In this document: positions 1-14,707 of the stretch, one piece after another
Layout: each line of letters begins with the position of its first letter
How positions within the stretch are numbered: position 1 is the first letter of the stretch
NCBI GenBank assembly: GCA_965228735.1
Contig: OZ245838.1
Location: 2,880,001-2,944,000, forward strand
Source: Planctomycetota bacterium
Lineage (GTDB): Bacteria > Planctomycetota > UBA1135 > UBA2386
Direction of reading: 5' to 3'
Length of the DNA: 64,000 nt
Position numbers and translations under genes: made by a program
Notes under the pieces: model-generated
What the model was told of the DNA's origin: nothing
Seen by the model: only the letters and a program-made list of their open reading frames with translations
The model's database searches: none

Positions 1-1080
1 CACGGGCTGCCCCTGGCCGTCGACGTGCTGGATCGTGATCGACCGGATCCGGTAGCGCGGCCCCTCGACGATCGCGAGCACGATGTCGACCTCGGTCCGA
101 TCCTCACTGAACACGACGTTGGCGAGGTCGACGGTCGCATCGAGGAAGCCGCGGCTGCGGTAGAACAGCCGCAACCGGTCGAGGTCCTCTTCGAGCACCT
201 CGCGGCTGTAGCCGACGCCGCGCGCGAGCCCCCACGCCGGATCGCTCTGGATGTGCGAGTCCCGCAGCAGGTAGCTGCCGGTGCCGGCGAACCCGAACCC
301 CGGCTCGGAAGCGAACGAGTCGTTGCCCAACGCGATGATGTCGCGAACCGTGACCTTGGTCCCTTCGTCGATGCGGAACTCGAGCGCGCGCCCACTGTCC
401 TCACCGCTGTTCTCGCCGCCCTCGATCGGCCGCTGCCGCAGCTCGACGTTCGCGAACGCGAACCCGTCGCGGTGGTAACGCGACAGCAGCACCTTGCGCA
501 TCGCCTCGGCCTCGTTCGACGTGACCTGGCGATCGCCGTCGAGGCCGAGCAGGCTGTTGACCGTGTCGCGCGACAGGCTGTCGAGGCCACGGAACTCGAC
601 CCGCTCGAACACCTCGATCTCGCGTTCGATGATGAACGTGAGGATCACGCCGTCGTCGGCCTCCTCGAGGAACGCGGACACGACGAGCCGACGCTCGTGC
701 CAGAGGTTCTCGCAGTCGGCCGTGACCCGCGCCGGGTCGTAGATCTGTCCGACGCGCGTCTCGAGGCTGCGCGTCAGCGAGTCGGCCGTCTGCGCGTCGA
801 CGAACTGCGCCCCACCTTCCTGCGCTCGCGCGATGCGGATCGCGCGCACGGTGCGCGTCTCACCGGCGGGCTCCTGCGCGCCCGGATCGACCGGCTTGCC
901 GGGGTCACCGACGGGCCGCTCCCGAAGGGTCGGCTGCACGTCCGGCCGCGGATCCTGACCACTGCCTGGTGGGTCGTTCCCCTGGTTGCGCTGCGCGCCC
1001 GGCAGCACGCCCGACTGCGCCGTGAGTGCGCCGGAGCACGCGCCGAGCCACACCCCGAGCACGAGCAGAACCGTCGCCAA
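1..1080 (-). CDS. bamA: Outer membrane protein assembly factor BamA/Omp85 family, N-terminal POTRA region (runs off window edge)
   Basis: Not in the ORF track; translated by hand from the probable TTG at 1080. Signal-like LATVLLVLGVWLGACSGALTAQ is followed by POTRA-like repeats (LETRVGQIYDPARVTADCENLW; YHRDGFAFANV..FRIDEGTKVTVRDI; YSREVLEEDLDRLRLFYRSRGFLDATV..IVEGPRYRIRSI). The frame is open to base 1. Confidence 0.85.
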   Translation of the reverse strand, partial: MATVLLVLGVWLGACSGALTAQSGVLPGAQRNQGNDPPGSGQDPRPDVQPTLRERPVGDPGKPVDPGAQEPAGETRTVRAIRIARAQEGGAQFVDAQTADSLTRSLETRVGQIYDPARVTADCENLWHERRLVVSAFLEEADDGVILTFIIEREIEVFERVEFRGLDSLSRDTVNSLLGLDGDRQVTSNEAEAMRKVLLSRYHRDGFAFANVELRQRPIEGGENSGEDSGRALEFRIDEGTKVTVRDIIALGNDSFASEPGFGFAGTGSYLLRDSHIQSDPAWGLARGVGYSREVLEEDLDRLRLFYRSRGFLDATVDLANVVFSEDRTEVDIVLAIVEGPRYRIRSITIQHVDGQGQPV

Positions 1081-1126
1081 TCCTGCAGGCCGGATGCTGC
1101 TCGATCCGACCTGCCGGCTGGCGCAC

Positions 1127-2473
1127 TCACTGCATCGGTTCTGCCCTGCGCGTGTAGTTCTCAAAACGCATGTATTCGCGGAAGAAGCGCAGCACGACCT
1201 CACCGGTCGGGCCATTGCGCTGCTTGGCGATGATGACTTGTGCGAGCCCGGCGTTCTCTTCCGTGGGTTTGAAGTACTCGTCGCGGTGCAGCAGGATGAT
1301 GACGTCCGCATCCTGCTCGATCGCGCCCGACTCGCGCAGGTCGCTCATCCGGGGGCGGTGATCATCGCGGCTCTCGACGTCGCGATTCAACTGCGACAGC
1401 GCGATTACGGGCATGGAAAGCTCCCGCGCGATGGCCTTGAGCCCGCGCGAGATCGCCGAGATTTCCTGTTGACGGCTCTCGACGCGGGTGCCCGCGGTCA
1501 TCAGCTGCAGATAGTCGACGACGAGCATGTCGATGCCGTGCTTCTGCTTCAGCCGGCGGCACTTGGCGCGCAGCTGCGTGATCGAGATGCCGGGCGTGTC
1601 GTCGACGAAGATCCGGGCCTCGTAGAGCCGCGCCGCCTCCTCCTGCAGCCGGCGATACTGCTGGTCCGTGATGCGCCCCTTGCGCATCGCCTGACCGTCG
1701 ATCTGCGCCCGACAGCACAGCATGTTCTGGATCACCTGCTGCTTGCTCATCTCGAGCGAGAAGAACGCCACGCCCGCGCCGAGGCTCGCGACGCGCTCGG
1801 TGAGGTTGAGCGCGAACGTCGTCTTACCCATCGACGGCCGCGCCGCGATGATGATGAGTTCCCCGGGCTGCAACCCGCCCGTCATGTCGTCGAAGTCGTA
1901 GTACTCGGTGCCGAGCCCCGTGAGCCGGCCATCGCGTTCCCGCAGGCGGTCGATGCGCTCGAACGTGAGCTGCAGCACGTCCGCGATGCTCGACGCCTCG
2001 CCGGCCTGCTCGAGGCGCGCGATCTCGAAGATGCGTCGTTCGGCGTCGTCGAGCAGGTCCTTGGCCTCGGTCTCGTTCGTGTAGGCCTGCTGCTGGATCT
2101 CCATGCACGTCGCGATGAGTTGCCGCTGCACCGACTTCTCGCGCACGATTTCGGCGTGGTAGGTCACGCCGGCCGCGGTCATCACGCTCTCCATCAGGTC
2201 GAGCAGTTGGCCGTGACCACCGGACTCCTCGAGCTTGCCGGTCCGCGACAGCTGCTCTCCGACCGAGATCGGGTCGGTCGCCTGCCGATCGTTGTAGCTC
2301 ACGACGATCGACTCGAAGATCAGCTGATGGCGCCGCAGGAAGAAGTCCTCCGGCTTGAGGAACGTCACGTCCGCCACCGCGTCCGGGTGCAGCAGCAGCG
2401 CCCCGATCACCGATCTCTCGGCATCGAGATTCTGCGGCGCCGAACGCCCCTCGCTGAGCTTGAAGTCCACCAT
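1127..2473 (-). CDS. dnaB: Replicative DNA helicase
   Basis: PQNLDAERSVIGALL, AARPSMGKT (Walker A), FFSLEMS, VVDYLQLM, ALSQLNR, SDLRESGAIEQDAD, IAKQRNGPTG; ATG at 2473. Confidence 0.98.
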   Translation of the reverse strand: MVDFKLSEGRSAPQNLDAERSVIGALLLHPDAVADVTFLKPEDFFLRRHQLIFESIVVSYNDRQATDPISVGEQLSRTGKLEESGGHGQLLDLMESVMTAAGVTYHAEIVREKSVQRQLIATCMEIQQQAYTNETEAKDLLDDAERRIFEIARLEQAGEASSIADVLQLTFERIDRLRERDGRLTGLGTEYYDFDDMTGGLQPGELIIIAARPSMGKTTFALNLTERVASLGAGVAFFSLEMSKQQVIQNMLCCRAQIDGQAMRKGRITDQQYRRLQEEAARLYEARIFVDDTPGISITQLRAKCRRLKQKHGIDMLVVDYLQLMTAGTRVESRQQEISAISRGLKAIARELSMPVIALSQLNRDVESRDDHRPRMSDLRESGAIEQDADVIILLHRDEYFKPTEENAGLAQVIIAKQRNGPTGEVVLRFFREYMRFENYTRRAEPMQ

Positions 2474-2702: not shown

Positions 2703-4490
2703 TCAGTTCGGATCGATGACCCGCCCCTGCGAGTTGTCGTCCCCGAGTTCGATGACGCCGCGCGACGACAGCTCCGCGAGCACGTCGCACGCCTCGTCGT
2801 AGCCGATCCGCAGCCGCCGCCGCAGGAACGCGGCCGAGGCGCGCCGCGTCTCGAGCACGACCTGCCGCGCCTCGTCGAGCAGTCTCTCGTCGAGGCCATC
2901 GCCGAACAACGACTGCTGGCGACCCCCGTCCTCCTCGTCGAGTTCGCGTTGCCGCTCCCGCCGCGACCGGAAGCGGCGACTCGGCGCGGGTTCGATCTCG
3001 GCCGCGGGCTCCGCCGCATCGGCCGCCTCGGACTCGGGCTGCGGCTCTGGCCCTGGCTCTCGCGCTGGCTCTCGCGCTGGCTCCGGATCCGGGATCGGCT
3101 CCGGGCGCGGGATCGCGAAGACCGGCTCGTCGGCATCTTCGGCCGCCGCTTCACGATCTTCCGAATCGACACCGTCGTCGTCCTGAGAGCCATCGTCGTG
3201 CCCGTAGCCGGCGGCCGGCAGGATTGCTCCAGCCGCGGCCGGCGCCTCGTCGACCCCGCGCGATTCCGGGTTGTCGATCTCCTGGCTGTCCGGCGCGACC
3301 GGCAGCCACTCCTGCGGCTCGGCGCCCTCGGCTGCGTCACTGGTCGTCGCGTCGGCGGACTCAGCGGTCTCGGCCTCGGTCTCGGCCTCGGCCTCGGCCT
3401 CGGCGCCGCGCGCGTCGGAGCGCCGCACCTCTTCGTAACGGCGCTCGAAGTAGGACCGCCGCCGCGCGCGACGCGGCTCCGCCACGACGTCGGGCACCGG
3501 ATCCTCGACGGCCGGCTCGACCTCGGGCACGTCGCTGGCCTCGGAGAACTCGTAGGCCTCGGCATCGGCCAGCTCGGGCTCGGCCTTCGACGCCCCAGCC
3601 GACTCCACCGGCGCCGGTTCACTCGGTGCCGACTGCCGTTCCCCGACGAGCTCCGCGAGCTCATCGCTCGACAGATCGGCCGCGTCCCGGGCCACCGCGC
3701 GCTCGGGCGCAGGAGCCGGTGCGGGGTCATCGTGCAGCGAGATCGTGTCCCGCGCCGCCGCGTCGGACGCGCGCACCTTGCGCCCCGATCCGCCGGCAGC
3801 ACCCGGCCGCAACGGGGCAGCCTCGGTCGCCGGCGCCGGCGAACCCATGGTCGCGGACGCGAGGCCCTTGAGGTGATCGGTGACCTCGGGCTCGACGCCC
3901 TCGTCGGCCGCGGCTTTGGCGGACGCCGGCTTCGCGCCGCCCGCACCGCGATACATGGACCGCGCATACAGCCGTTCGAACGTCTCGCTGAACAGGAAGT
4001 CGGTCGCGAGCAGCAGCGCGCCGAGCGTCGTGACCGACGCGAGCAGCATCGAGGGGTAGTAGCCGAACGCCGCGACGAGCCGCGCCGCGAAGAACGCGCC
4101 GAGCTCGCCGAGGTGCGGGCGCGCGTCGACCTGTTCGCCGACGTTCATGAACACGCCGAGCATGACGAGCACGGCGACGAGCCGGATCACGCGGTTCAGC
4201 GGCCGCTCGACGCGACCCGTGAAGAACCAGATCGACGTCCAGATCAGCAGCAGCAGGAAGAACATCACCGCCGGCGCGAAGCCGAACGTGCGATAGATCG
4301 CGGCGTAGATCGTCTGGAGCCACGACTCGACGGCGATCGTGTGCTGGTAGAAGTGGAAGTAGAACAGCGCCGACAGCGAGAAGACCGCGATGCAGAACGG
4401 AATCAGCAGCGCGCCGCGTTGCAGTCGGCCGGTCTCGTTGGGCTCGGCCTGGTTGGATCCGGCCGGACCGCCGGGCTGATTGTCGGTCAT
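2703..4490 (-). CDS. FtsK-like membrane protein: 4TM domain + acidic linker + FtsK gamma-like winged helix, no ATPase motor
   Basis: N-terminal TM helices resemble FtsK 4TM (FGFAP.., GELGAFFAARLVAAFGYYPSMLL..LLLATDFLFS). The C-terminus DERLLDEARQVVLETRRASAAFLRRRLRIGYDEACDVLAELSSRGVI matches the gamma domain of the adjacent FtsK. No Walker A/B. GGAGGGG RBS before ATG 4490. Confidence 0.8.
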   Translation of the reverse strand: MTDNQPGGPAGSNQAEPNETGRLQRGALLIPFCIAVFSLSALFYFHFYQHTIAVESWLQTIYAAIYRTFGFAPAVMFFLLLLIWTSIWFFTGRVERPLNRVIRLVAVLVMLGVFMNVGEQVDARPHLGELGAFFAARLVAAFGYYPSMLLASVTTLGALLLATDFLFSETFERLYARSMYRGAGGAKPASAKAAADEGVEPEVTDHLKGLASATMGSPAPATEAAPLRPGAAGGSGRKVRASDAAARDTISLHDDPAPAPAPERAVARDAADLSSDELAELVGERQSAPSEPAPVESAGASKAEPELADAEAYEFSEASDVPEVEPAVEDPVPDVVAEPRRARRRSYFERRYEEVRRSDARGAEAEAEAETEAETAESADATTSDAAEGAEPQEWLPVAPDSQEIDNPESRGVDEAPAAAGAILPAAGYGHDDGSQDDDGVDSEDREAAAEDADEPVFAIPRPEPIPDPEPAREPAREPGPEPQPESEAADAAEPAAEIEPAPSRRFRSRRERQRELDEEDGGRQQSLFGDGLDERLLDEARQVVLETRRASAAFLRRRLRIGYDEACDVLAELSSRGVIELGDDNSQGRVIDPN

Positions 4491-4595
4491 GCGCCCCTCC
4501 GCGGGCTGGTGCTGCGATAGGTCCGATACCACCGGACGAGCGGCGAAGCTAACACCGAGTGGCCGACGCGACAAGCAAGGGCCAGATCCCGCGGC

Positions 4596-7500
4596 TCACG
4601 CATCGCGGCTGTCCTCGTCCTCGTCCTCGTCCTCTTCGAGCTCGTCGTCCTCGAGGTCCTCGCCGTCCTCGTCCTCCTCGTCCTCCTCGTACTCCTCGCC
4701 GTCCTCGTCGTCGTCCTCGAGCTCCTCGTCGTCCTCTTCGCCTTCGTCCTCGAGGTCTTCGTCTTCGTCTTCGTCCTCTTCCTCTTCCTCTTCCTCTTCT
4801 TCCTCGTCCTCTTCCTCGTCCTCTTCTTCCTCGCCCTCGTCCGCTTCGTCTTCCTCGGCCTCGTCCGCCGCCGCGTCCTCGTCGTCCGCCGTGATCTCGA
4901 CCGTCTCGGCCGCATCCACCGCCGCCGCGACTGCCGCCTCGATGTCCTCGCCTTCCTCGACGACGATCACGTCCTCGGCGTCGACCTCTTCGTATTCGGC
5001 CTCCTCGCCGCCCTCGAGGTCGGCCATCGCGTCCGCCATGTCGGCCTCGCGCTGCTTCCACTCGTCGAGCGTCATCATGACCTCGCGCGACTTGCTGCCG
5101 ACGAACGGACCGACGAGTCCGTCGGCCTCCATGAGCTCGAGCAGGCGGGTCGCGCGCGTGTAGCCGACCGACAACGCCCGCTGCAACAGCGTCGCGGACC
5201 CGCGTTGCTGCCCGAGGATCACCTCGACCGCGTCGTTGTAGAGTTCGTCCGACTTCGCGGCGCTCGGCCGCGAACTGCTCTGCGTCTGCACGAGGTCGCG
5301 GTTGAACTGCGGCTCCTGACCGTGCTCCTCGAGATGCTGGATGACGGCCGCGAGTTCTTCGTCGGCGACGAACGCGCCCTGTGCGCGCAACAGCGCCCCA
5401 CCGCCCGGCGGCATGTAGAGCATGTCACCGTGCCCGAGCAGCTTCTCCGCGCCATTGGCGTCGAGGATCACGCGCGAGTCGATCCGACGGTTGACGCGGA
5501 ACGCGATCTGACACGGCAGGTTGGCCTTGATGATGCCCGTGATGACCTCGCTGCTCGGCCGCTGCGTCGCGAGGATCACGTGCATGCCGACGGCGCGCGA
5601 CTTCTGCGCGAGGCGCTGGATCGAGTCCTCGACCTCGTTCTGCGCGACGTTCATGAGGTCGGCGAACTCGTCGATCACGATCACGATGTACGGCAGCTGC
5701 ACGCGGTCGGGCTCGAGCGCCTTGCCGATGCGCCGTTCGACCTCCTGCTGTCCGAGCCGGTTGTAGCTGCGGATGTGATTCACCCCCGCGGCCGACAGCA
5801 TCGTGTAGCGGTGCTCCATCTCCTCGACGGCCCACTGCAGCACCGCCGGCGCCTTCTTCATGTTCGTGACGACGTCACAGCACAGGTGCGGCACGCGCTT
5901 GTAGGCCTGCAGCTCGACCATCTTGGGGTCGACGAGGATCAGCTTGACCTGGGCGGGCGACCGCGTCATCAGGACCGACAGCAAGATCGCGTTGATGCAG
6001 ACCGACTTGCCGGAGCCCGTCGTGCCCGCGATCAGCAGGTGCGGCATGCGCGCGAGATCCTCGACGATCGGGTTGCCCGCGACGTCCTTGCCGAGGTAGA
6101 GCGGGATGCCGAGGTCCTCCGATCGCCCGAACTGGTCGAGCAGATCGCGCATCAGCACCTTCTGCCGTTCCTCGTTCGGCACCTCGACGCCGACCGTGTC
6201 CTTGCCGGGGATCGGCGCGACGACGCGCACCGAGATCGCCTTGAGCGCCGCCGCGAGATCCGACTCGAACGTCGTGATCTTGTTGACCCGGATATGGTCC
6301 GCGAGCCGCAGTTCGTACTGCGTCACCGCCGGCCCGACGGACGCGGCGACGACCTCGGCCTCGACCTTGAAGTTCGCGAGCTTCGCGACGATCGCCTCAC
6401 CACCCTGCGTCAGCTGCTCGGACGTCGCGCCGATGTCGCCCTGCACGGGCTCGGAGAACAACTCGAACGGCGGGAACGGGTAGGCCTCGTCGAACGGCAG
6501 ATCGCTCTGCTGGCTCGACTTGCTCGGCGCGCGCTTGCTCGGCCGCTTGCGCACGATGCGGATCTTGACGGGCTTCTTCGCGGGCGCCGTCGGCTCTTCG
6601 ACCTCGTCGCCCGCGAGCTGCGCAGCGACGGCGTTCTGCGCCGGGTCCGAGCCATCGCTCGCAGCCACCGCACCGTTCGTGCTCGGCGCGGCGGCCGTCG
6701 CCGGCGCACCGGCATCCGAGTCGTGCTCCGCGTCGGCGCCCGTCGCCGTATCGACGTGCCCGCCGGAGTCGGCCGCGGCCTTCGATCGCCGCGAACGCGG
6801 CTTGGCCGCCGCGCTCGGCGCCGCATCTGGATCCTGCACGGCCTCGACGGCCGCGGCGGCCGCCGACTCGACGGCCTCGGACTCCGCGGCGGCGGCAGCA
6901 GCGGCCGCGGCTGCCGCAGCTTCGCGCTCGGCCGCGATCTCCTTGCGCCGGCGGCGGCGGCCGGACTTGGGCGGCGCGACGACCGCGGTGACTGCCGGCT
7001 CGGCAACGGCGTCCGGCTCGGCCGCCTCGTCCTCGTCGACGTTCGCGGCCGTTTGCGTGCGCCCCCGCCGAGACCGCACTCCCGACCTGCCGGCCCCGTC
7101 GCCGTCCCGGTCCGCGACGTCCTGCTCGGGCATGCCAACGGCGCCACCCTCGACCGCGAGCGCCGGCCGCGCGCGCTCCCGCCACCAGGCGACGACGCGC
7201 TGCCACAGCTCCTCGCCGCCGGCGAGCGCGCGCATCAGCATCTGCGAGAACAGCCATTCCGTCACGAGCAGCAGCGACACGAGCATGCCGAACCCGACGA
7301 TGAGCAACCGCCCCGAACCACCGAAGGCCGCCTCGAGACTCGGCGACACCGTCGCGCCGAAGATGCCGCCCGCGCTGTACGGCGTGAGCCCGGAGAACCC
7401 AGCGTCGCCGGCGCGACCGGCCAGCAGGATCGCGAACATCATCGCGAACGCGAGCGCGCCGACGGCCTTGATGATCGGCTTCTCGACCCGACGCCCGATG

Positions 7501-7838
7501 AAGAGCAGCACGCCGTGCGTGAGCAGCACGAGCGCCGGCACCCAGCCCGCATAGCCGAGCGGACAGACGAACGCGAACGCCAGGTAGTAGCCGACCGCGC
7601 CGCCGAGATTCTCGAGCCCGGCGCTCGGGATGCCCGCGTCGCCGGCGAGTCGAAACGTCGACAACGCCAGCAGCACGTAGAGCGCGAAGCCGCTGAGCCC
7701 GAGCGCGAGCAGCTCGCGGGAGCGTTGCGACAGGCCGGGCTCCGGCACGTCCTCGAGCGGCACGAACTTCGTGCCGCGGCGCTTCTTCGGCTGGTCTTTG
7801 GCGTCGGTGTCGGTCTTCTTGGCTGTCGCGCGGCTCAT
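4596..7838 (-). CDS. ftsK: DNA translocase FtsK with long Asp/Glu C-terminal tail
   Basis: 4TM N-terminus, PHLLIAGTTGSGKS, LVDPKMVEL, VIDEFADLM, LATQRPS, GAEKLLGHGDML, gamma domain (SATLLQRALSVGYTRATRLLELME). Confidence 0.97.
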   Translation of the reverse strand: MSRATAKKTDTDAKDQPKKRRGTKFVPLEDVPEPGLSQRSRELLALGLSGFALYVLLALSTFRLAGDAGIPSAGLENLGGAVGYYLAFAFVCPLGYAGWVPALVLLTHGVLLFIGRRVEKPIIKAVGALAFAMMFAILLAGRAGDAGFSGLTPYSAGGIFGATVSPSLEAAFGGSGRLLIVGFGMLVSLLLVTEWLFSQMLMRALAGGEELWQRVVAWWRERARPALAVEGGAVGMPEQDVADRDGDGAGRSGVRSRRGRTQTAANVDEDEAAEPDAVAEPAVTAVVAPPKSGRRRRRKEIAAEREAAAAAAAAAAAAESEAVESAAAAAVEAVQDPDAAPSAAAKPRSRRSKAAADSGGHVDTATGADAEHDSDAGAPATAAAPSTNGAVAASDGSDPAQNAVAAQLAGDEVEEPTAPAKKPVKIRIVRKRPSKRAPSKSSQQSDLPFDEAYPFPPFELFSEPVQGDIGATSEQLTQGGEAIVAKLANFKVEAEVVAASVGPAVTQYELRLADHIRVNKITTFESDLAAALKAISVRVVAPIPGKDTVGVEVPNEERQKVLMRDLLDQFGRSEDLGIPLYLGKDVAGNPIVEDLARMPHLLIAGTTGSGKSVCINAILLSVLMTRSPAQVKLILVDPKMVELQAYKRVPHLCCDVVTNMKKAPAVLQWAVEEMEHRYTMLSAAGVNHIRSYNRLGQQEVERRIGKALEPDRVQLPYIVIVIDEFADLMNVAQNEVEDSIQRLAQKSRAVGMHVILATQRPSSEVITGIIKANLPCQIAFRVNRRIDSRVILDANGAEKLLGHGDMLYMPPGGGALLRAQGAFVADEELAAVIQHLEEHGQEPQFNRDLVQTQSSSRPSAAKSDELYNDAVEVILGQQRGSATLLQRALSVGYTRATRLLELMEADGLVGPFVGSKSREVMMTLDEWKQREADMADAMADLEGGEEAEYEEVDAEDVIVVEEGEDIEAAVAAAVDAAETVEITADDEDAAADEAEEDEADEGEEEEDEEEDEEEEEEEEEEDEDEDEDLEDEGEEDDEELEDDDEDGEEYEEDEEDEDGEDLEDDELEEDEDEDEDSRDA

Positions 7839-8503
7839 CCGGCTCTCCCGCTTTCGTGCAGCGCGACCGCGGCGTCGACGATGCGGCGCGCGGTCACGGA
7901 CTTGTCCTGGCGCGGCAGTCGCTCGTCGCGACCGTCCGCAAAGCAGAGCACGACCTCGCTGCCCGTGGCATCGATGGCGTCGTGCAGGTTCACCACGACG
8001 AAGTCGAGGTGCTTGTGGCGCAGCTTCTCCCGGCCGCGGGCGATCGCGGCCTGGAGCCCGGCACGGGTCGATTCGAGCGCGAAGCCGACGACGACACGCG
8101 GCGCGGCCGCCCCGCTTGCCTTGCTCGAACCGAGCCCGGCGACGATGTCAGGATTGCGTACCAGGTCGATCTGGATCCGTTCGGCCGCACGCGGCGGCTT
8201 CCCGGCCTTGCGATCGACGGGTCGGTAGTCCGACACCGCGGCGGCCGCGATCGCGACCTCCGCGTGCTCGAACGCCGCGACCGCCGCCCGCTGCATCTCG
8301 AGCGCCGATACCACGGGCACGACCGTCGCCCCGGCCGGCGGCTCGATGGCCACCGGTCCGAGCACGAGGGTCGGCGCGTGACCGGCCGCGAGCGCCGCGG
8401 CAGCGAGCGCACACCCCATGCGGCCCGAGCTACCATTGCTCAGGTACCGAACGTCATCGAGGTACTCGCGGGTCGGACCCGCGGTGATCACGATGGACGC
8501 CAT
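7835..8503 (-). CDS. coaB: Phosphopantothenate--cysteine ligase (stand-alone CoaB/DFP domain)
   Basis: ITAGPTREYLDDVRYLSNGSSGRMG, AAAVSDYRP, VGFALES, KHLDFVVVN; stop overlaps ftsK ATG (ATGA). Confidence 0.9.
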   Translation of the reverse strand: MASIVITAGPTREYLDDVRYLSNGSSGRMGCALAAAALAAGHAPTLVLGPVAIEPPAGATVVPVVSALEMQRAAVAAFEHAEVAIAAAAVSDYRPVDRKAGKPPRAAERIQIDLVRNPDIVAGLGSSKASGAAAPRVVVGFALESTRAGLQAAIARGREKLRHKHLDFVVVNLHDAIDATGSEVVLCFADGRDERLPRQDKSVTARRIVDAAVALHESGRAG

Positions 8504-8650: not shown

Positions 8651-10360
8651 TTGCCCCCCTCTTCGCAACTCGTCGACGTCCCGTCGACCATCGATCGCCA
8701 GCGCGGCATCCGGACCTCACCCGTCGCCTCTTCCGGTTGGGCCTCTTCCGGTTGGGGCGTGACGGCACTGCTGCTGGCCACCGCGCTCCCCACGGCCCTC
8801 AGCGGGTGCTTCTCGCCCGGCTACTACAAGGACTGGGCCGACGACCAGGTCTACGGCATCCTCGCCGACAAGACGGAGGACGTCACCGGCGTCCGCAAGA
8901 CGTTCGACATCGTGCGGCCCGTGGACACGCTGCGGAAGCGCCTGCTCGAGTCCGACGAGCCGGTCAAGCTGACGCTGCTCCAGGCGCTCGACGTCGCGGC
9001 GGAGAACAGCCGTGACTTCCAGCGCCAGAAGGAGCAGCTCTACCTCGCGGCGCTGTCGCTGACGCAGGCCCGCCGGGACTTCCAGTTCGTCTTCGCCGGC
9101 GGCGGCGGAGCGGCCATCGACGGCGTCGACGACGACGTCGCGGACGTGAGCCTCAGCGACGACCTGTCGACCTCGGCCGACACGCCGTCCGGCGGCCGCG
9201 TCGTCGCGGGCTTCGTGCAGACGTTCCTGCGGTCGGTGATCAACGGCGACGGGTTCGACGGCAGCTCGATCCTCAACCTCACGCTGACGCAGCCGCTGAT
9301 GCGGGGCGCGACGCAGCGGATCCGGCAGGAGCCCCTGCGCCAGGCCGAACGGGACGTGGTCTACGCGGTCCGCGCATTCGAGCGCTTCCGCGTGAACTTC
9401 GCCCAGCGGGTCGTCACCGACTACTGGAACCTCGCGGCGCAGATCCGCAACCTCGCGTCGGTCGAGGCCAACCTGCGCAGCCTGACGACGTCGCGCGAGC
9501 GCATCGAGGAGTTGTTCAACGCCGGTCGCTCGACGGTGACCGACTTCGGCCGTGCGCAGCAGAGCGAGTACGGCGCCGATGCCCGCCGCGTCACGGCGAC
9601 CAACCAGCTGCAGGCCTCGCTCGACCGCTTCAAGCTCACGCTCGGTCTGCCGGTCACGGCGGCCGTCGACGTCGACCCGGCCGAGCTCGACACGCTCGTC
9701 GAGCGCGGTGTCACGCCGATCGAACTCGACCAGGACACGGCCATCGGCATCGCGCTCCTGCGGCGCTACGACTACCAGACGGTCGTCGACGAGGTCGCCG
9801 ACGCGGGCCGTCGGATCTACGTCGCCGAGGACGCGCTGCGCTCGTTCCTCGACTTCAACGCGGCCCTCAGCGTGCCGGGCGAGACCGGCAGCAGCCTCAA
9901 CCTCGACTGGTCGCGCGTGAACTGGTCGGCCGGCTTCGACCTCGACCTCGCGCTCGACCGCTTCAGCGAACGCAACGCTTACCGCAGCACGCTCATCAGC
10001 TTCGAGGTGGCCGTGCGCGCTCGCGAACAGTTCGAGGACCAGATCGCGACCGACGTGCGCGCTTCCCTGCGTGACATCGGCACCGCGATCGACAGCTACA
10101 ACATCCAGAAGGTCGCCGTCGATCTCGCGCGCCAGCGCGTCGAAGCCACGACCGACCTCTACGACGCGGGCCGCATCCAGGCGTTCGAGAAGCTCGACGC
10201 CCAGGACGACCTGCTGTCGGCGCAACTCGATCTCACGGCAGCGACGGTCGCCTACGCGGTGGCGCGCCTGCAACTCATGAACGACCTCGAAGGCGTCGCG
10301 CTCGAACCGCGCGGCCTGCGCTTCGATCCCAAGCTGCCGATCCCCGACTCGGCGGAATGA
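8651..10360 (+). CDS. TolC-family outer membrane efflux lipoprotein (start uncertain: TTG 8636/8651 or GTG 8759)
   Basis: Lipobox ALSGC; LTLLQALDVAAENSRDFQ; LTLTQPLMRG; helical OEP repeats; first gene of the efflux operon. Confidence 0.85.
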   Translation: MPPSSQLVDVPSTIDRQRGIRTSPVASSGWASSGWGVTALLLATALPTALSGCFSPGYYKDWADDQVYGILADKTEDVTGVRKTFDIVRPVDTLRKRLLESDEPVKLTLLQALDVAAENSRDFQRQKEQLYLAALSLTQARRDFQFVFAGGGGAAIDGVDDDVADVSLSDDLSTSADTPSGGRVVAGFVQTFLRSVINGDGFDGSSILNLTLTQPLMRGATQRIRQEPLRQAERDVVYAVRAFERFRVNFAQRVVTDYWNLAAQIRNLASVEANLRSLTTSRERIEELFNAGRSTVTDFGRAQQSEYGADARRVTATNQLQASLDRFKLTLGLPVTAAVDVDPAELDTLVERGVTPIELDQDTAIGIALLRRYDYQTVVDEVADAGRRIYVAEDALRSFLDFNAALSVPGETGSSLNLDWSRVNWSAGFDLDLALDRFSERNAYRSTLISFEVAVRAREQFEDQIATDVRASLRDIGTAIDSYNIQKVAVDLARQRVEATTDLYDAGRIQAFEKLDAQDDLLSAQLDLTAATVAYAVARLQLMNDLEGVALEPRGLRFDPKLPIPDSAE

Positions 10361-10388
10361 CCCGAATCACTCCATTGTGCAACTGAAC

Positions 10389-12659
10389 ATGTCCATCCAA
10401 CGATCGCGCATCGCCGGCCTCCTCGCCGGCGCCGCCGCCCTGGCCGCATGCCAAGGCGAAGACACGACCACGGCGAGCGTGGTCAACACCTACACCGTCA
10501 GCCGCGAGGACCTGCCGATCAACATCAAGGAAGGCGGCGAGCTCGTCGCCGTCAACGAGACGGTCGTGCGCTCGCAGCTCGAAGGCAATGCGACGATCCT
10601 GAGCCTGATTCCGGAGGGCACGGCGGTCCAGAAGGGCGACCTGCTCGTCGAGCTCGACGTTTCCGGCGTCGAGAAGGAACTCGCGTCGCAGGAGATCGCG
10701 GTCGAGAAGGCGCGCAACGCCCTCGAGCAGGCCAAGACGCAGCAGGAGATCCTCGAGAAGCAACTCGAGACGACACGCACGACCGCGGAGTCGCAGCAGA
10801 AGATCGCCGCGATGGAGCTGCAGAAGATGCTCGGCGCCGCGTCCGCGGCCGCCACGGAGGGCAAGAATCGCGACATGATCGCGCGCCTCACGGAGCTCGT
10901 CACGCCGCAGCCCGAAACCGAGATCCCGGCCGTCGCCAACGCCGACAACGGTGACGGCAAGTCGACCGCGGAGCGCAAGTCCGGCGAGATCCTCACGGCC
11001 AACCAGACCGGCAGTCAATCCCAGCGGCGCCCGGTCGACGCCGCAGCGCCCGCAGGCACGCTCATCCAGCAGGTCAAGCCCGAGAATTACGCCGGGCTCG
11101 TCGATACCGCGATCGCGCTGCTCGAGGTGCCCGGCGATCCGAGCGACCCGCTCGAGCGCGACATGGGTGAGATGGCGAACAAGATCCTGCAGCAGGCGGA
11201 CCAGATCCGCCTCGCGATGGCGCAGCTCAAGGTCGCCGAGGACACCGTGTTCCACAGCCGCCGGCTCGCGGCCAAGAAGTTCATCACGCGCAATGAACTC
11301 GAGCGCGACGAGCTCGACTACCAAAGCCAGGCGTCCAAGGTCACGATCGCGTGGAACGACCTCGACCTCCTGATCAACTACACGCTGGAGCGCGACCTGA
11401 TCGAGCTGCGCCAGAACCTCGCGAACGCGAAGCTCGAGGTCGAGCGCGTAATCGCGTCGAACGACGCCGAGCGCAAGAACTCGCAGTTCGACGTCACGGC
11501 CAAGCAGAAGGAGTTCGAGGTCGCGCAGGAACGTCTCGACGTTCTGCGTCGCCAGGTCGACAACGCTGTCATCTACTCGCCGGGCCCGGGCCTCGTCGTC
11601 TACTCGCGGGTATCCCGCGGCCGCGGCGACAGCGAGTCGGTCGAGGAGGGCACGACCGTCCGCGAGCGCCAGCCGATCATCATTCTGCCCGACAACTCCG
11701 AGCTGAAGTGTGAGATCAAGGTCCAGGAGGCCATGATCGACAAGGTTCGGATGGGACTGCCCGCGCTCATCAGCGCCGAGGTCCGGCCCAATGACACGAT
11801 CACGGGTCGCGTGACCTACGTCGCGCCCGTCGCGGACTCCGGCAGCCGCTGGAGCGGCAACGACAAGAAGGTCTATGCCACGCACGTGCTGCTGGACAGC
11901 GGCAAGACGGGCGGCGGCCTGAAGGCCGGCATGAAGGCGTCCGCGACGATCACCGTCGACATGATCGAGGACGTACTCACGGTTCCGATCCAAGCCGTTC
12001 GTCGCGACCGCGCGGTGAACTACGTCTGGCGCCATACTGCGAACGGCCCGGAGGCGGTCGTCGTCGAGGTCGGCGCGCACAACGAAGAGAAGGTCGAGAT
12101 CACGAGCGGCGTCAGTGAGGGCGACCGGGTCTACCGCACGCCGCCCGGTGGTCAGGCCGACCCCAAGTTCCCGCAACCCGAAGCGCCCAAGGTCGACCCG
12201 GCCGAGGTCGAGGCCGCCGCCGCGAAGGCGAAAGCCGAAGGCAACGACGGCGGCGATTGGCGACGCGGCGGAACCGACGGCGATGAGGGCAGCTCGCGCC
12301 GCCGCGGCGGTTCCCGGAAGGCCTACACCGAGATGGATGCGGCCGAGGTCGCCGCCGCCCTGGAGCGCCTTCGCGGCATGGCCGACCGCATGCCGGAGAG
12401 CATGCGCGGCAGCATGACCGGCATCATCCAGGCGCTCGAAGCCAACGATCTGCAGAAGGCGCAGGACCTGTCCGACGCCATGCGGGCTCAGTTCCGCAAC
12501 CGCTCCGGCGGCGGCGACGGCGAACGCAGCGGCCGAGGCGGCGAACGCAGCGGCCGAGGCGGCGAACGCAGCGGCCGAGGCGGCGAACGCAGCGGCCGAG
12601 GCGGCGAACGGGGCGAACGCGGCGGCCGCGATGGCGTGAGCCGCCGCCAGGGAGGCTAG
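10389..12659 (+). CDS. Efflux periplasmic adaptor (HlyD/MacA-like) lipoprotein with extended coiled coil and Gly/Arg-rich tail
   Basis: Lipobox ALAAC; lipoyl half LIPEGTAVQKGDLLVELD; IYSPGPGLVVY; LKAGMKA; LTVPIQAV; VEITSGVSEGDRV. Confidence 0.88.
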   Translation: MSIQRSRIAGLLAGAAALAACQGEDTTTASVVNTYTVSREDLPINIKEGGELVAVNETVVRSQLEGNATILSLIPEGTAVQKGDLLVELDVSGVEKELASQEIAVEKARNALEQAKTQQEILEKQLETTRTTAESQQKIAAMELQKMLGAASAAATEGKNRDMIARLTELVTPQPETEIPAVANADNGDGKSTAERKSGEILTANQTGSQSQRRPVDAAAPAGTLIQQVKPENYAGLVDTAIALLEVPGDPSDPLERDMGEMANKILQQADQIRLAMAQLKVAEDTVFHSRRLAAKKFITRNELERDELDYQSQASKVTIAWNDLDLLINYTLERDLIELRQNLANAKLEVERVIASNDAERKNSQFDVTAKQKEFEVAQERLDVLRRQVDNAVIYSPGPGLVVYSRVSRGRGDSESVEEGTTVRERQPIIILPDNSELKCEIKVQEAMIDKVRMGLPALISAEVRPNDTITGRVTYVAPVADSGSRWSGNDKKVYATHVLLDSGKTGGGLKAGMKASATITVDMIEDVLTVPIQAVRRDRAVNYVWRHTANGPEAVVVEVGAHNEEKVEITSGVSEGDRVYRTPPGGQADPKFPQPEAPKVDPAEVEAAAAKAKAEGNDGGDWRRGGTDGDEGSSRRRGGSRKAYTEMDAAEVAAALERLRGMADRMPESMRGSMTGIIQALEANDLQKAQDLSDAMRAQFRNRSGGGDGERSGRGGERSGRGGERSGRGGERSGRGGERGERGGRDGVSRRQGG
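12519..12602 (+). repeat. 4 x 21-bp perfect tandem repeat encoding (GERSGRG)4
   Basis: Unit ggcgaacgcagcggccgaggc at 12519, 12540, 12561 and 12582, in frame within the adaptor tail. Confidence 0.9.
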
Positions 12660-12662
12660 GGC

Positions 12663-13439
12663 GTGCAGGCAGCGCAACAGAGCAGCGAGATCCAGGACAG
12701 CGAGATCATCGCCGAGTTCGTCGACGTCCACCGCCACTACAAGATGGGCGACAACGTCGTGCGCGCCCTCAACGGCGTGTCGATGCAGGTCGCGCGCGGC
12801 GACTACCTGACGATCATGGGCCGCTCGGGGTCCGGCAAGAGCACGATGCTCAACCTGCTCGGCTGCCTCGACCGTCCGTCGGCCGGCGAGTACCGAGTCG
12901 GCGGCCGCGACGTGAGCCGCCTCGACGACGACGCGCTCTCCGACGTGCGCGGCCGCGAGATCGGGTTCATCTTCCAGTCGTTCAACCTGATTCCGCAGCT
13001 CACGGTTCTCGAGAACCTCGAAGTGCCGCTGTTCTACCAGGGCCGCGTCGGCCCCGAGTCGCGGAAGAAGGCGGAGTATCTCGCCGATCGCGTCGGCCTC
13101 GGGCAGCGCCTCGAGCACAAGCCGCTCGAGCTCTCGGGCGGTCAGCAGCAGCGCGTCGCGATCGCGCGTGCGCTGATGAACGACCCGCTGTTCCTCCTGG
13201 CGGACGAGGCGACCGGCAACCTCGACAGCAACACCGAGCGCGAGATCCTCGACCTGTTCGACGACCTGCGCAGCGATGGGGTGACCATCGTCATGGTCAC
13301 CCACAACCCGACCGTCGCCAAACGCGCAGACCGCACCCTCTGGCTCAAGGACGGCGAGGTCGAGAAGCTCGTGGAGAACGACGGCGCCAAGCGGCCCGCA
13401 GCCGGCGTCGGCGCGACCGCCGAGGGAGCCGGCGAGTGA
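12663..13439 (+). CDS. ABC transporter ATP-binding protein (LolD/MacB type)
   Basis: GRSGSGKS, IGFIFQSFNL, LSGGQQQRVAIARAL, LADEATGNLD, VTH. Confidence 0.95.
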   Translation: MQAAQQSSEIQDSEIIAEFVDVHRHYKMGDNVVRALNGVSMQVARGDYLTIMGRSGSGKSTMLNLLGCLDRPSAGEYRVGGRDVSRLDDDALSDVRGREIGFIFQSFNLIPQLTVLENLEVPLFYQGRVGPESRKKAEYLADRVGLGQRLEHKPLELSGGQQQRVAIARALMNDPLFLLADEATGNLDSNTEREILDLFDDLRSDGVTIVMVTHNPTVAKRADRTLWLKDGEVEKLVENDGAKRPAAGVGATAEGAGE

Positions 13440-14707
13440 TCCTCCGCGACAGTTGGCGCATCGTCCGCCTCGGGCTCAAGAGCCTGATGTTGCACAAGCT
13501 GCGCAGCTCGCTCACCACGGCCGGCATCCTCTTCGGTGTGGCGTCGGTGATCGCCATGCTCGCCGTCGGCGAGGGGGCCAAGGTCGAGGCGCTCGAGCGC
13601 TTCAAGGACATGGGCGTCACCAACCTGATCGCCCGCAGCAAGAAGCCCGCCGAGAGTCTGTCGAACAGCCAGAGCTCGGCCTGGATGCCGCTGGCCTACG
13701 GCCTCATGTACGGGGAGGCCGACCTCATCGCGTCCTCGTTGCCCGATGCCACGGTCGTCCGCGTCCGTGAGATCAAGCGGCCGATGATGCGCGGCGAGTT
13801 CTTCCACAGCTCGATCGTCGTGGGCACGGAATCGCGATTCCTCGACGTCACCAACATGACGGTGCGCGAGGGCCGCTGGCTGAGCGACGTCGACAACGCG
13901 CGCCTCGCCAATGTCTGCGTCCTCGGCGCGACGCTCGCGCGCATCCTGTTTCCGCTCGAGAACCCTATGGACCAGACGATCCTCGTGGGCGACGACGATC
14001 GGTATCGGGTGATCGGCGTGCTGGCGGACCAGGGCCGCACCGCGGGTGCCGGCAGCACGCCGTACGACGAGTGTCTGTTCATCCCGATGAAGACGTCGCA
14101 CCGGCGCTTCGGTGTGACTCTGACCAACAGCTCGGGCGGTTCGTTCTCGCGCGAACGCGTCGAACTGCACGAGGTGAAGGTCAAGATGCCGACGTCGGAG
14201 GATGTGGCGGCAGGCGCCCGCATCCTGCGCGATCTCATCGACCGCGAGCACAAGGACCAGAACGACGTCCTGATCACGGTGCCGCTCGAGCTGCTGCAAC
14301 AGGAGGAGGCGAGCAAGAAGATGTTCAACATCGTGCTCGCCGTCATCGCCTCGATCAGCCTGCTCGTCGGCGGCATCGGCATCATGAACGTGATGCTCGC
14401 CACCGTGACGGAGCGGACGCGCGAGATCGGCATCCGCCGGGCGCTGGGCGCCAAGAAGCGGCACATCATCCAGCAGTTCCTCGTCGAATCCGGCGTGCTC
14501 TCCGCGCTCGGCGGCATCGTCGGGGTCGCGCTCGGCGTGGCGCTGCCGTTCCTCATCACGCTGTGGTTCGAGCAGAAGACGATCATCCTGCCGCAGCACG
14601 TCGTGCTCGCGTTCGGGATCTCGGCCGCCGTCGGCGTCGTGTTCGGGATCTATCCCGCCTGGCGCGCCGCGAACATGGACCCGGTCGACGCGCTGCGCCA
14701 CGAGTAG
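13436..14707 (+). CDS. ABC transporter permease (MacB/FtsX type)
   Basis: KLRSSLT..GILFGVASVIAMLAVGEG; SLLVGGIGIMNVMLATVTERTREIGIRRALGA; YPAWRAANMDPVDALRHE. Confidence 0.95.
   Translation: MILRDSWRIVRLGLKSLMLHKLRSSLTTAGILFGVASVIAMLAVGEGAKVEALERFKDMGVTNLIARSKKPAESLSNSQSSAWMPLAYGLMYGEADLIASSLPDATVVRVREIKRPMMRGEFFHSSIVVGTESRFLDVTNMTVREGRWLSDVDNARLANVCVLGATLARILFPLENPMDQTILVGDDDRYRVIGVLADQGRTAGAGSTPYDECLFIPMKTSHRRFGVTLTNSSGGSFSRERVELHEVKVKMPTSEDVAAGARILRDLIDREHKDQNDVLITVPLELLQQEEASKKMFNIVLAVIASISLLVGGIGIMNVMLATVTERTREIGIRRALGAKKRHIIQQFLVESGVLSALGGIVGVALGVALPFLITLWFEQKTIILPQHVVLAFGISAAVGVVFGIYPAWRAANMDPVDALRHE

Follow-up and report, generated by a model that had tools for sequence, protein, structure and literature searches.

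A motorless FtsK paralog encoded behind ftsK in Planctomycetota carries a clamp-client-like motif

Contig OZ245838.1 of a Planctomycetota bacterium (GTDB lineage UBA1135/UBA2386; assembly GCA_965228735.1) encodes, directly behind a full-length ftsK, a second FtsK-type protein that has a membrane domain, a long acidic linker, and a C-terminal gamma winged helix but no motor. We refer to this gene as X and to the 64,000-nucleotide stretch in which it was found (positions 2,880,001 to 2,944,000) as the window. X is a conserved motorless partner gene of ftsK that is under purifying selection in Planctomycetota. It goes back to a single duplication, has lost the residues that read FtsK-orienting polar sequences (KOPS) in the window's family, and carries a conserved QxxLF motif resembling those of sliding-clamp clients. 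Tentatively, and at slightly short of an even chance, we propose that X is a passive membrane tether that would catch clamp-loaded DNA for FtsK.

Architecture, distribution, and origin of X

The original prediction described a motorless gene with a four-transmembrane (4TM) domain, linker, and gamma domain behind full-length FtsK, and this architecture was confirmed. Pfam identified the gamma domain (FtsK_gamma, PF09397; 40.3 bits, cut-off 30.6, amino acids 535-585), matched FtsK_4TM (PF13491) weakly (16.6 bits, E 0.0066, under the 23.1 cut-off), and returned neither the alpha domain (PF17854) nor the SpoIIIE motor (PF01580). Judged by its 28% identity to the N-terminus of the neighboring FtsK (156 amino acids, E 1e-8), four hydrophobic peaks in the hydropathy profile, and a predicted helical bundle, the membrane domain of X is homologous to FtsK 4TM. 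In an AlphaFold2 (AF2) model built from a 30-sequence alignment, this bundle was confident (predicted local distance difference test, pLDDT, 81-97), as was the winged helix, and the linker was mostly disordered. FtsK gamma domains made up the ten top rows of a Foldseek search with the model (TM-score to target 0.69-0.86), at weak E values of 0.006-0.04, and no solved structure matched the membrane domain. The gamma domain, 33% identical over 46 amino acids to that of the neighboring FtsK, also matched the Protein Data Bank entries 2ve8, 2ve9, and 2j5p in both sequence and fold. The predicted strong ribosome-binding site, unbroken frame, and high GC content at third codon positions (GC3) likewise held (GGAGG, an intact frame for 595 amino acids, and a GC3 of 0.88). 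Promoter and terminator scans gave chance-level signals only. Coordinates of X, its parts, and its neighbors are collected in Table 1.

Table 1. Features of X and of the neighboring genes in the window
Feature	Position	Strand	Evidence or remark
Gene X, motorless FtsK paralog, 595 aa	2703..4490	-	Open reading frame, Pfam, alignment, AF2
X membrane domain, aa 23-182, FtsK 4TM homolog	3945..4424	-	Weak PF13491 match, 28% identity to neighbor, hydropathy, AF2
X linker, acidic Ala/Glu/Pro/Asp, mostly predicted disordered	2922..3944	-	Sequence and AF2
RQQSLF, X aa 524-529, sliding-clamp-type short motif	2904..2921	-	Low-confidence coil
X gamma winged helix	2706..2897	-	Acidic recognition helix (IGYDEACDVLAELS), helix-2 arginines kept
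GGAGG ribosome-binding site	4496..4500	-	5 nt ahead of the X ATG
Full-length ftsK (4TM, linker, alpha, motor, gamma, 152-aa acidic tail)	4596..7838	-	Pfam; 105 nt upstream of X
QSDLPF, FtsK aa 444-449, six-residue clamp-type motif	6492..6509	-	Just ahead of the alpha domain
coaB (C-terminal half of CoaBC)	7835..8503	-	Often upstream of ftsK, X present or not
dnaB, replicative helicase	1127..2473	-	Downstream of X in the window's family only
bamA-like gene, 5' part	1..1134	-	Runs out of the window

We scrutinized relatives of the window's genome for the same architecture, as the original prediction had proposed. Among 40 relatives, 35 had two gamma matches, three had one, and two had none; in one of the three single-match genomes X was cut at a contig end, and the other two belong to family f9, which lacks X. 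Across 300 genomes of the phylum, at least two gamma matches were present in 14 of 17 from the same order and in 69 of 283 from outside it. Apparent same-contig pairs occurred in 46 of those 69, and all 40 that were fetched hold a motorless second gene. The resulting set of 76 X copies from 21 Planctomycetota families (22 copies from the window's family) was picked for a second gamma match and is not a random sample. X lies directly downstream of ftsK at 66 of these 76 loci, a membrane-domain match stands in the same frame in 68, and the Walker A pattern was found in none. For the 30 aligned X proteins, Pfam reported FtsK_gamma in 30, FtsK_4TM in 11, and a motor family (PF17854 or PF01580) in none. 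The linker spans 160-783 amino acids across 67 X homologs. The membrane domain is shortened to two or three hydrophobic peaks in families f30 (L065-L068, L071) and f93 (L081, L083). As a control, 40 ftsK loci were taken from genomes with one gamma match or just a weak second one; X followed ftsK at none of them, though three of these loci stop within 2.6 kb of ftsK. Beyond the phylum, two Atlas searches yielded three gamma-bearing clusters at 0.91-0.97, for which Planctomycetota was the commonest phylum, and the rest scored below 0.9; other phyla were not searched genome by genome. Homology searches showed no cultured species name among the X homologs. An ftsK end and an X start of the type seen in the window's family also stand on a 2-kb contig (L164) whose title assigns it to an Acidimicrobiales genome; this contig is probably misbinned.

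In a FastTree phylogeny of the membrane and gamma columns, 67 X formed one clade apart from 108 FtsK (support 0.984). The X subgroups broadly mirror the FtsK tree, several family groupings recurring in both halves. The membrane columns alone gave the same split with low support for the X clade (0.11), and three of the 67 X were misplaced with the gamma columns alone. Gene order adds to this picture. The gene rimO follows X at 35 of 54 loci outside the window's family and follows ftsK at 12 of the 40 control loci, and the data therefore point to an origin of X by a single tandem duplication between ftsK and rimO. Family f9, from the same order as the window and with genomes of 2.5-3.4 Mb (L056, L057, and related loci), lacks X; in L057 rimO directly follows ftsK, which suggests that X was lost cleanly there. 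In a tree of the motor, most FtsKs from loci lacking X cluster together, but on a short, unsupported branch. The co-orientation with dnaB and bamA that had been noted is true of the window, and dnaB follows X at 21 of 22 loci of its family, where the dnaB-bamA link is equally frequent. At the 54 loci outside that family this arrangement was never found, and coupling to dnaB and bamA was therefore rejected as a general feature of X.

Ratios of nonsynonymous to synonymous substitution (dN/dS), estimated by a simple counting method on genes with high GC3, were below 1 for the gamma domain in all 17 pairs (0.03-0.43) and for the membrane domain in all 14 estimable pairs (0.12-0.73; one further pair was saturated and two were without data). 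The gamma value was the lower of the two in 13 of 14 pairs. In a contig from a second study, the 3' end of ftsK, X, and dnaB follow one another in register just as in the window, with zero differences except a skipped repeat (4655-4891). The original prediction had also judged that X does not look like a decayed fragment. The opposing idea, that X is a recent duplicate in decay or a product of faulty assembly, could appeal to the 4TM match under the Pfam cut-off and to split frames at three of the 76 loci. It is refuted by the single clade across 21 families, dN/dS below 1, and the matching contig, and its chance of being correct is next to nil. The split-frame cases are X in L025, L069, and L090, together with ftsK in L045, where a stop or a change of frame separates the membrane part from the C-terminal part; these may be assembly errors or real breaks.

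Selection on the membrane domain also bears on a scaffold role, whereby X would act in division mainly through this domain, and gamma and the motif would recruit some other protein in FtsZ-less cells. The FtsK N-terminus has been described as the essential part of the protein in E. coli (PMC12283558) and as sufficient for septal targeting (PMC11975371), and ftsK is essential in P. limnophila (PMC10632474). No FtsZ or tubulin match was found in the window's genome, which is 93% complete. GTDB UBA1135 has been placed in the OM190/Saltatorellus group, the three isolates of which lack FtsZ (preprint 10.1101/817700), and the window's genome likely belongs to this group. Together with two predatory classes, the group has been set against Planctomycetia, Phycisphaerae, and Brocadiia (10.64898/2026.10.26.761892). 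We nevertheless judge a scaffold role improbable: gamma is under tighter constraint than the membrane domain in nearly all pairs, two families retain only a reduced set of hydrophobic peaks, and X is missing from one family of the same order and from 40 other ftsK loci of the phylum.

Gamma-domain residues and the segregation system of the genome

Gamma residues are given in E. coli numbering, taken from an ungapped alignment. The residues altered in the E. coli KOPS-blind FtsK, R1300, E1303, and E1306 (PMC2680272), correspond to D, A, and S in X of the window and to R, E, and E in the neighboring FtsK, and the recognition helix of X shows a charge reversal. The original prediction had noted neither this reversal nor the RQQSLF motif. 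Because all three positions are changed in X and retained in its neighbor, it is unlikely that X of the window reads KOPS. The original prediction of a two-component FtsK system thus stands in part: X is a conserved, selected partner gene in a genome without an FtsZ match, for which the option of a passive tether fits best, whereas the KOPS-adaptor option is not supported for this copy. The Xer-adaptor and dominant-negative options of that prediction may yet hold. Across the loci compared, R1297 was kept in 112 of 112 FtsK versus 20 of 76 X, and R1300 in 110 of 112 versus 21 of 76. No X of the window's family (0/22) kept either residue, and these positions are often acidic there. Helix 2 is conserved in X (Q1288 in 62/76, R1289 in 66/76), G1294 is kept in 27 of 76, and the 120 homologs of another family show strong conservation of an acidic recognition helix.

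In E. coli, gamma contacts XerD through Q1288, R1289, R1292, I1293, G1294, and N1296; R1289 is the key XerD-activating arginine, bound by Glu183 and Glu184 of XerD, and N1296 bonds XerD E119 (PMC5052618). At these six positions X of the window has R, R, R, I, G, and D, four of which are identical (Q1288 is replaced by R and N1296 by D). Of the 22 X in the window's family, 21 keep R1292, where their FtsKs have S, A, or G, and 15 have D or E in place of N1296. The XerD-like protein of the window's genome (L142:1459-2364) keeps E119, Y187, and W188 and has D and T in place of E183 and E184. D1296 of X would thus face the conserved E119 of XerD, and repulsion is predicted.

The window's genome encodes XerC-like and XerD-like proteins and has a canonical-looking dif-like site at 1,261,988 (G000:C1:1261976-1262015), approximately 10 kb away from where the GC skew peaks; dnaN (G000:C1, approximately 4,570,363-4,571,463) is located at the skew minimum, near 4,570,500. 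The octamer GGTGGGGG is found 227 times on the leading strand versus 12 times on the other (95%), genome-wide and independent of gene sense. Its polarity flips across the dif-like site, with the last plus-strand copy at 1,255,806 and the first minus-strand copy at 1,264,950. We regard GGTGGGGG as a candidate KOPS of this lineage, with a Chi-like role as an alternative. The E. coli-type KOPS (GGGCAGGG) was also tried in this genome and rejected, having a strand bias of just 62% and no switch at the dif-like site. Given the Xer genes, the dif-like site, and the polarized octamer, FtsK seems to have a normal segregation system to act on, and X of the window is unlikely to be its sequence reader.

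These data allow a further rival to be weighed, namely that X works without the motor as an adaptor for Xer or KOPS, its gamma domain either activating XerD at dif or contacting oriented motifs in DNA. The widely kept R1289, the R1292 that the family's X have and their FtsKs lack, and the presence of Xer genes, a dif-like site, and a polarized octamer would all suit such an adaptor, as would the 14 of 76 X that keep both basic residues of the recognition helix. On the other hand, repulsion between XerD E119 and the acidic residue at 1296 is predicted for most X of the window's family, G1294 is kept in only about a third of X, XerD E183/E184 are replaced, and the three KOPS-blind positions are all changed. 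An adaptor role therefore appears rather remote, marginally more so than a scaffold.

A clamp-type motif in X and ahead of the FtsK motor

The tether reading draws mainly on a short motif beside the gamma domain. In 21 of 22 X from the window's family, QxxLF occurs no more than 30 amino acids from gamma, where shuffling predicts 0.02, and it is equally close to gamma in 2/2 X of family f7 and 4/4 of family f19. Among 69 database homologs, 66 have a gamma match, and 63 of these carry QxxLF within the same 30 amino acids. In the homologs of another family the motif lies 40-420 amino acids from gamma (43/120, 2.9 expected), and with this varying distance it behaves as a free linear motif would. 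Outside the window's family, 16 of 54 X have QxxLF at some point along the linker (1.4 expected). The background rate of QxxLF is 191 in 2.35 million residues, or 8 per 100,000. Motif presence may be linked to the loss of recognition-helix residues, a hint given by frequencies of 35/62 versus 2/14 overall and 14/40 versus 2/14 outside the window's family, in which kin are not independent.

The clamp-binding motif is defined as Q-aliphatic-x-[L/M]-(x)-[F/L], with tolerance at position 2 (PMC11139829). RQQSLF of X fits the Q1, L4, F5 pattern, is conserved, and sits in a disordered region, modeled as coil with pLDDT below 50. Four of six clamp-client-type proteins encoded in the same genome carry QxxLF as well: DinB (RQRGLF), ImuB (QQGELF), MutS (RQNELF), and DnaE (GQKMLF), all with a non-aliphatic residue at position 2. 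Both ImuB and MutS are clamp clients. On the side of the clamp, DnaN shows no variation among 24 relatives at ten residues that PMC11139829 lists for the pocket.

Several observations weigh against a clamp tether. The motif is missing from 38 of 54 X outside the window's family; clamp binding is therefore not the sole reason for keeping X, and its membrane and gamma domains must themselves serve some function. Position 2 of the X motif is Gln and not the canonical aliphatic residue, DnaE2 and MutL of the window's genome show no clear clamp motif, and His175 of the DnaN pocket is Arg in this genome. A passage search of the clamp review (PMC11139829) showed no mention of FtsK. The 14 X with both recognition-helix basic residues may still read DNA, and both the placement of X at the division site and its contact with DnaN are predictions from sequence. 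Finally, a similar motif holds a fixed pre-motor position in many FtsKs, which leaves the FtsK motor or some division protein as a possible partner instead.

This pre-motor motif reads QxxLPF in the window's family and stands 14-15 amino acids ahead of the alpha domain in 18 of 20 FtsKs; a motif of this kind was present in 1 of 47 and in 2 of 42 other Planctomycetota FtsKs. QSDLPF of the window's FtsK aligns with KQAPLF of the P. aeruginosa FtsK chain 2iut. For a broader view, one of the 64 parts of a metagenome collection was searched by pattern, which favors some lineages, yielding 118 FtsK loci (L254-L371), of which 107 were kept after 11 with short upstream sequence or duplicates were dropped. 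QxxL(x)F occurs in the 40 amino acids ahead of the alpha domain in 61 of these 107 (1.0 expected), and [RK]QxxLF lies 8-20 amino acids ahead of it, frequently in the form S-x-R-x-x-[KR]-E-[KR]-Q-x-P-L-F. This has the look of a clamp-binding or docking motif that has gone unreported, and the word 'clamp' is absent from passages of the cryo-EM paper on P. aeruginosa FtsK (PMC7321959). The pattern cuts both ways: it may reflect a widespread FtsK-clamp contact or another partner such as the motor.

A further possibility is that X is a regulatory subunit of FtsK, in which the membrane domains co-assemble while QxxLF and the altered gamma bind to the motor or to some other partner of FtsK and so dilute, space, or brake the pump. 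X stands directly behind ftsK at most loci, the X and FtsK trees broadly match, and the pre-motor motif, aligned as it is with the P. aeruginosa sequence, may be an internal docking motif of FtsK; moreover, an acidic recognition helix conserved in 120 homologs is what would be expected of a protein-binding face. However, the motif is mostly missing from Planctomycetota FtsKs outside the window's family that share the motor, and it is thus not a required motor part. It also matches the clamp clients of the window's genome, and the membrane domains of X and FtsK are merely 28% identical. We consider a regulatory subunit unlikely, though it deserves more weight than a scaffold or an adaptor.

Proposed role and relation to known systems

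Under the clamp-tether reading, X would sit in the inner membrane beside FtsK, targeted to the division site via its FtsK-type membrane domain, and its linker of several hundred residues would provide reach. RQQSLF is predicted to grip DnaN sliding clamps left on newly copied DNA; in B. subtilis, clamps are reported to accumulate behind replication forks (PMC13220808). The altered gamma domain may add a sequence-blind contact to DNA or protein. In this way X would keep just-replicated terminus DNA near the FtsK motor, and KOPS reading and XerD activation would stay with FtsK.

X shares with the FtsK/SpoIIIE translocases (PF13491, PF17854, PF01580, and PF09397) a four-helix membrane domain, a long disordered linker, and a C-terminal gamma, having come from an ftsK duplication. 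Unlike them, it is without the alpha domain, the RecA-type motor, and Walker A, has lost the KOPS residues in most lineages, and is a second gene beside an intact ftsK. In Bacillus, SftA acts beside SpoIIIE, two FtsK-family proteins thereby sharing work in one cell. Such second FtsK-family genes retain the motor and may be without the membrane anchor, opposite to X, which has the anchor but no motor. With engineered FtsK[blind] and gamma-Xer fusions, KOPS reading, XerD activation, and translocation could be separated from one another (PMC2680272, PMC5052618). X resembles FtsK[blind] in that the same three positions are changed, and it keeps R1289. Those derivatives, however, are laboratory constructs with the motor kept or fused to a recombinase, whereas X is natural, motorless, and predicted to be membrane-bound. 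Like the beta-clamp clients Pol III alpha, Pol IV, Hda, and MutL, X and FtsK have Q1, L4, and F5 (X) or F6 (FtsK) in a disordered segment. The clients covered in the accessible part of the review are replication and repair proteins and not membrane division proteins (PMC11139829); X differs from them in its non-aliphatic position 2, and its binding is a prediction only. Our search of open-access papers found no description of X or of an FtsK clamp motif. The available portions of four papers (PMC12283558, PMC12288469, PMC11975371, PMC10632474) mention ftsK without a motorless copy.

Further observations concern the flanking genes. In the window, coaB has no fused coaC half, and coaB lies upstream of ftsK at 47 of 67 loci with X and at 19 of 45 without it. 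The window's FtsK has a C-terminal tail (4599-5054) that comprises 152 amino acids, 66% of them Asp or Glu, and acidic tails of more than 40 amino acids occur in many FtsKs of the window's family as well as in some families lacking X. Four co-oriented plus-strand open reading frames at approximately 8700-14707 resemble MacAB-TolC (an outer-membrane factor, a periplasmic adaptor, an ABC ATPase, and a permease), as judged from their translations.

Division without FtsZ is poorly understood in Planctomycetota, where ftsK is the canonical division gene that has been retained (PMC12288469, PMC10632474). X, present across 21 families, is a concrete candidate division component with separable, mutable parts. 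The motif reduces the clamp question to a six-residue peptide versus DnaN, and since it precedes the motor in many metagenome FtsKs and in the P. aeruginosa chain, the question can be approached in a laboratory model. Extending this, the QxxL(x)F at the end of the FtsK linker could be an unrecognized clamp site through which, in many bacteria and among them P. aeruginosa, the septal pump is coupled to the replication clamp; one large FtsZ-less branch of Planctomycetota would then have moved this link into a dedicated motorless membrane tether tying replication termination to division. We hold this as a more doubtful proposal than the tether itself. If true, it would connect the division machinery directly with the replication clamp.

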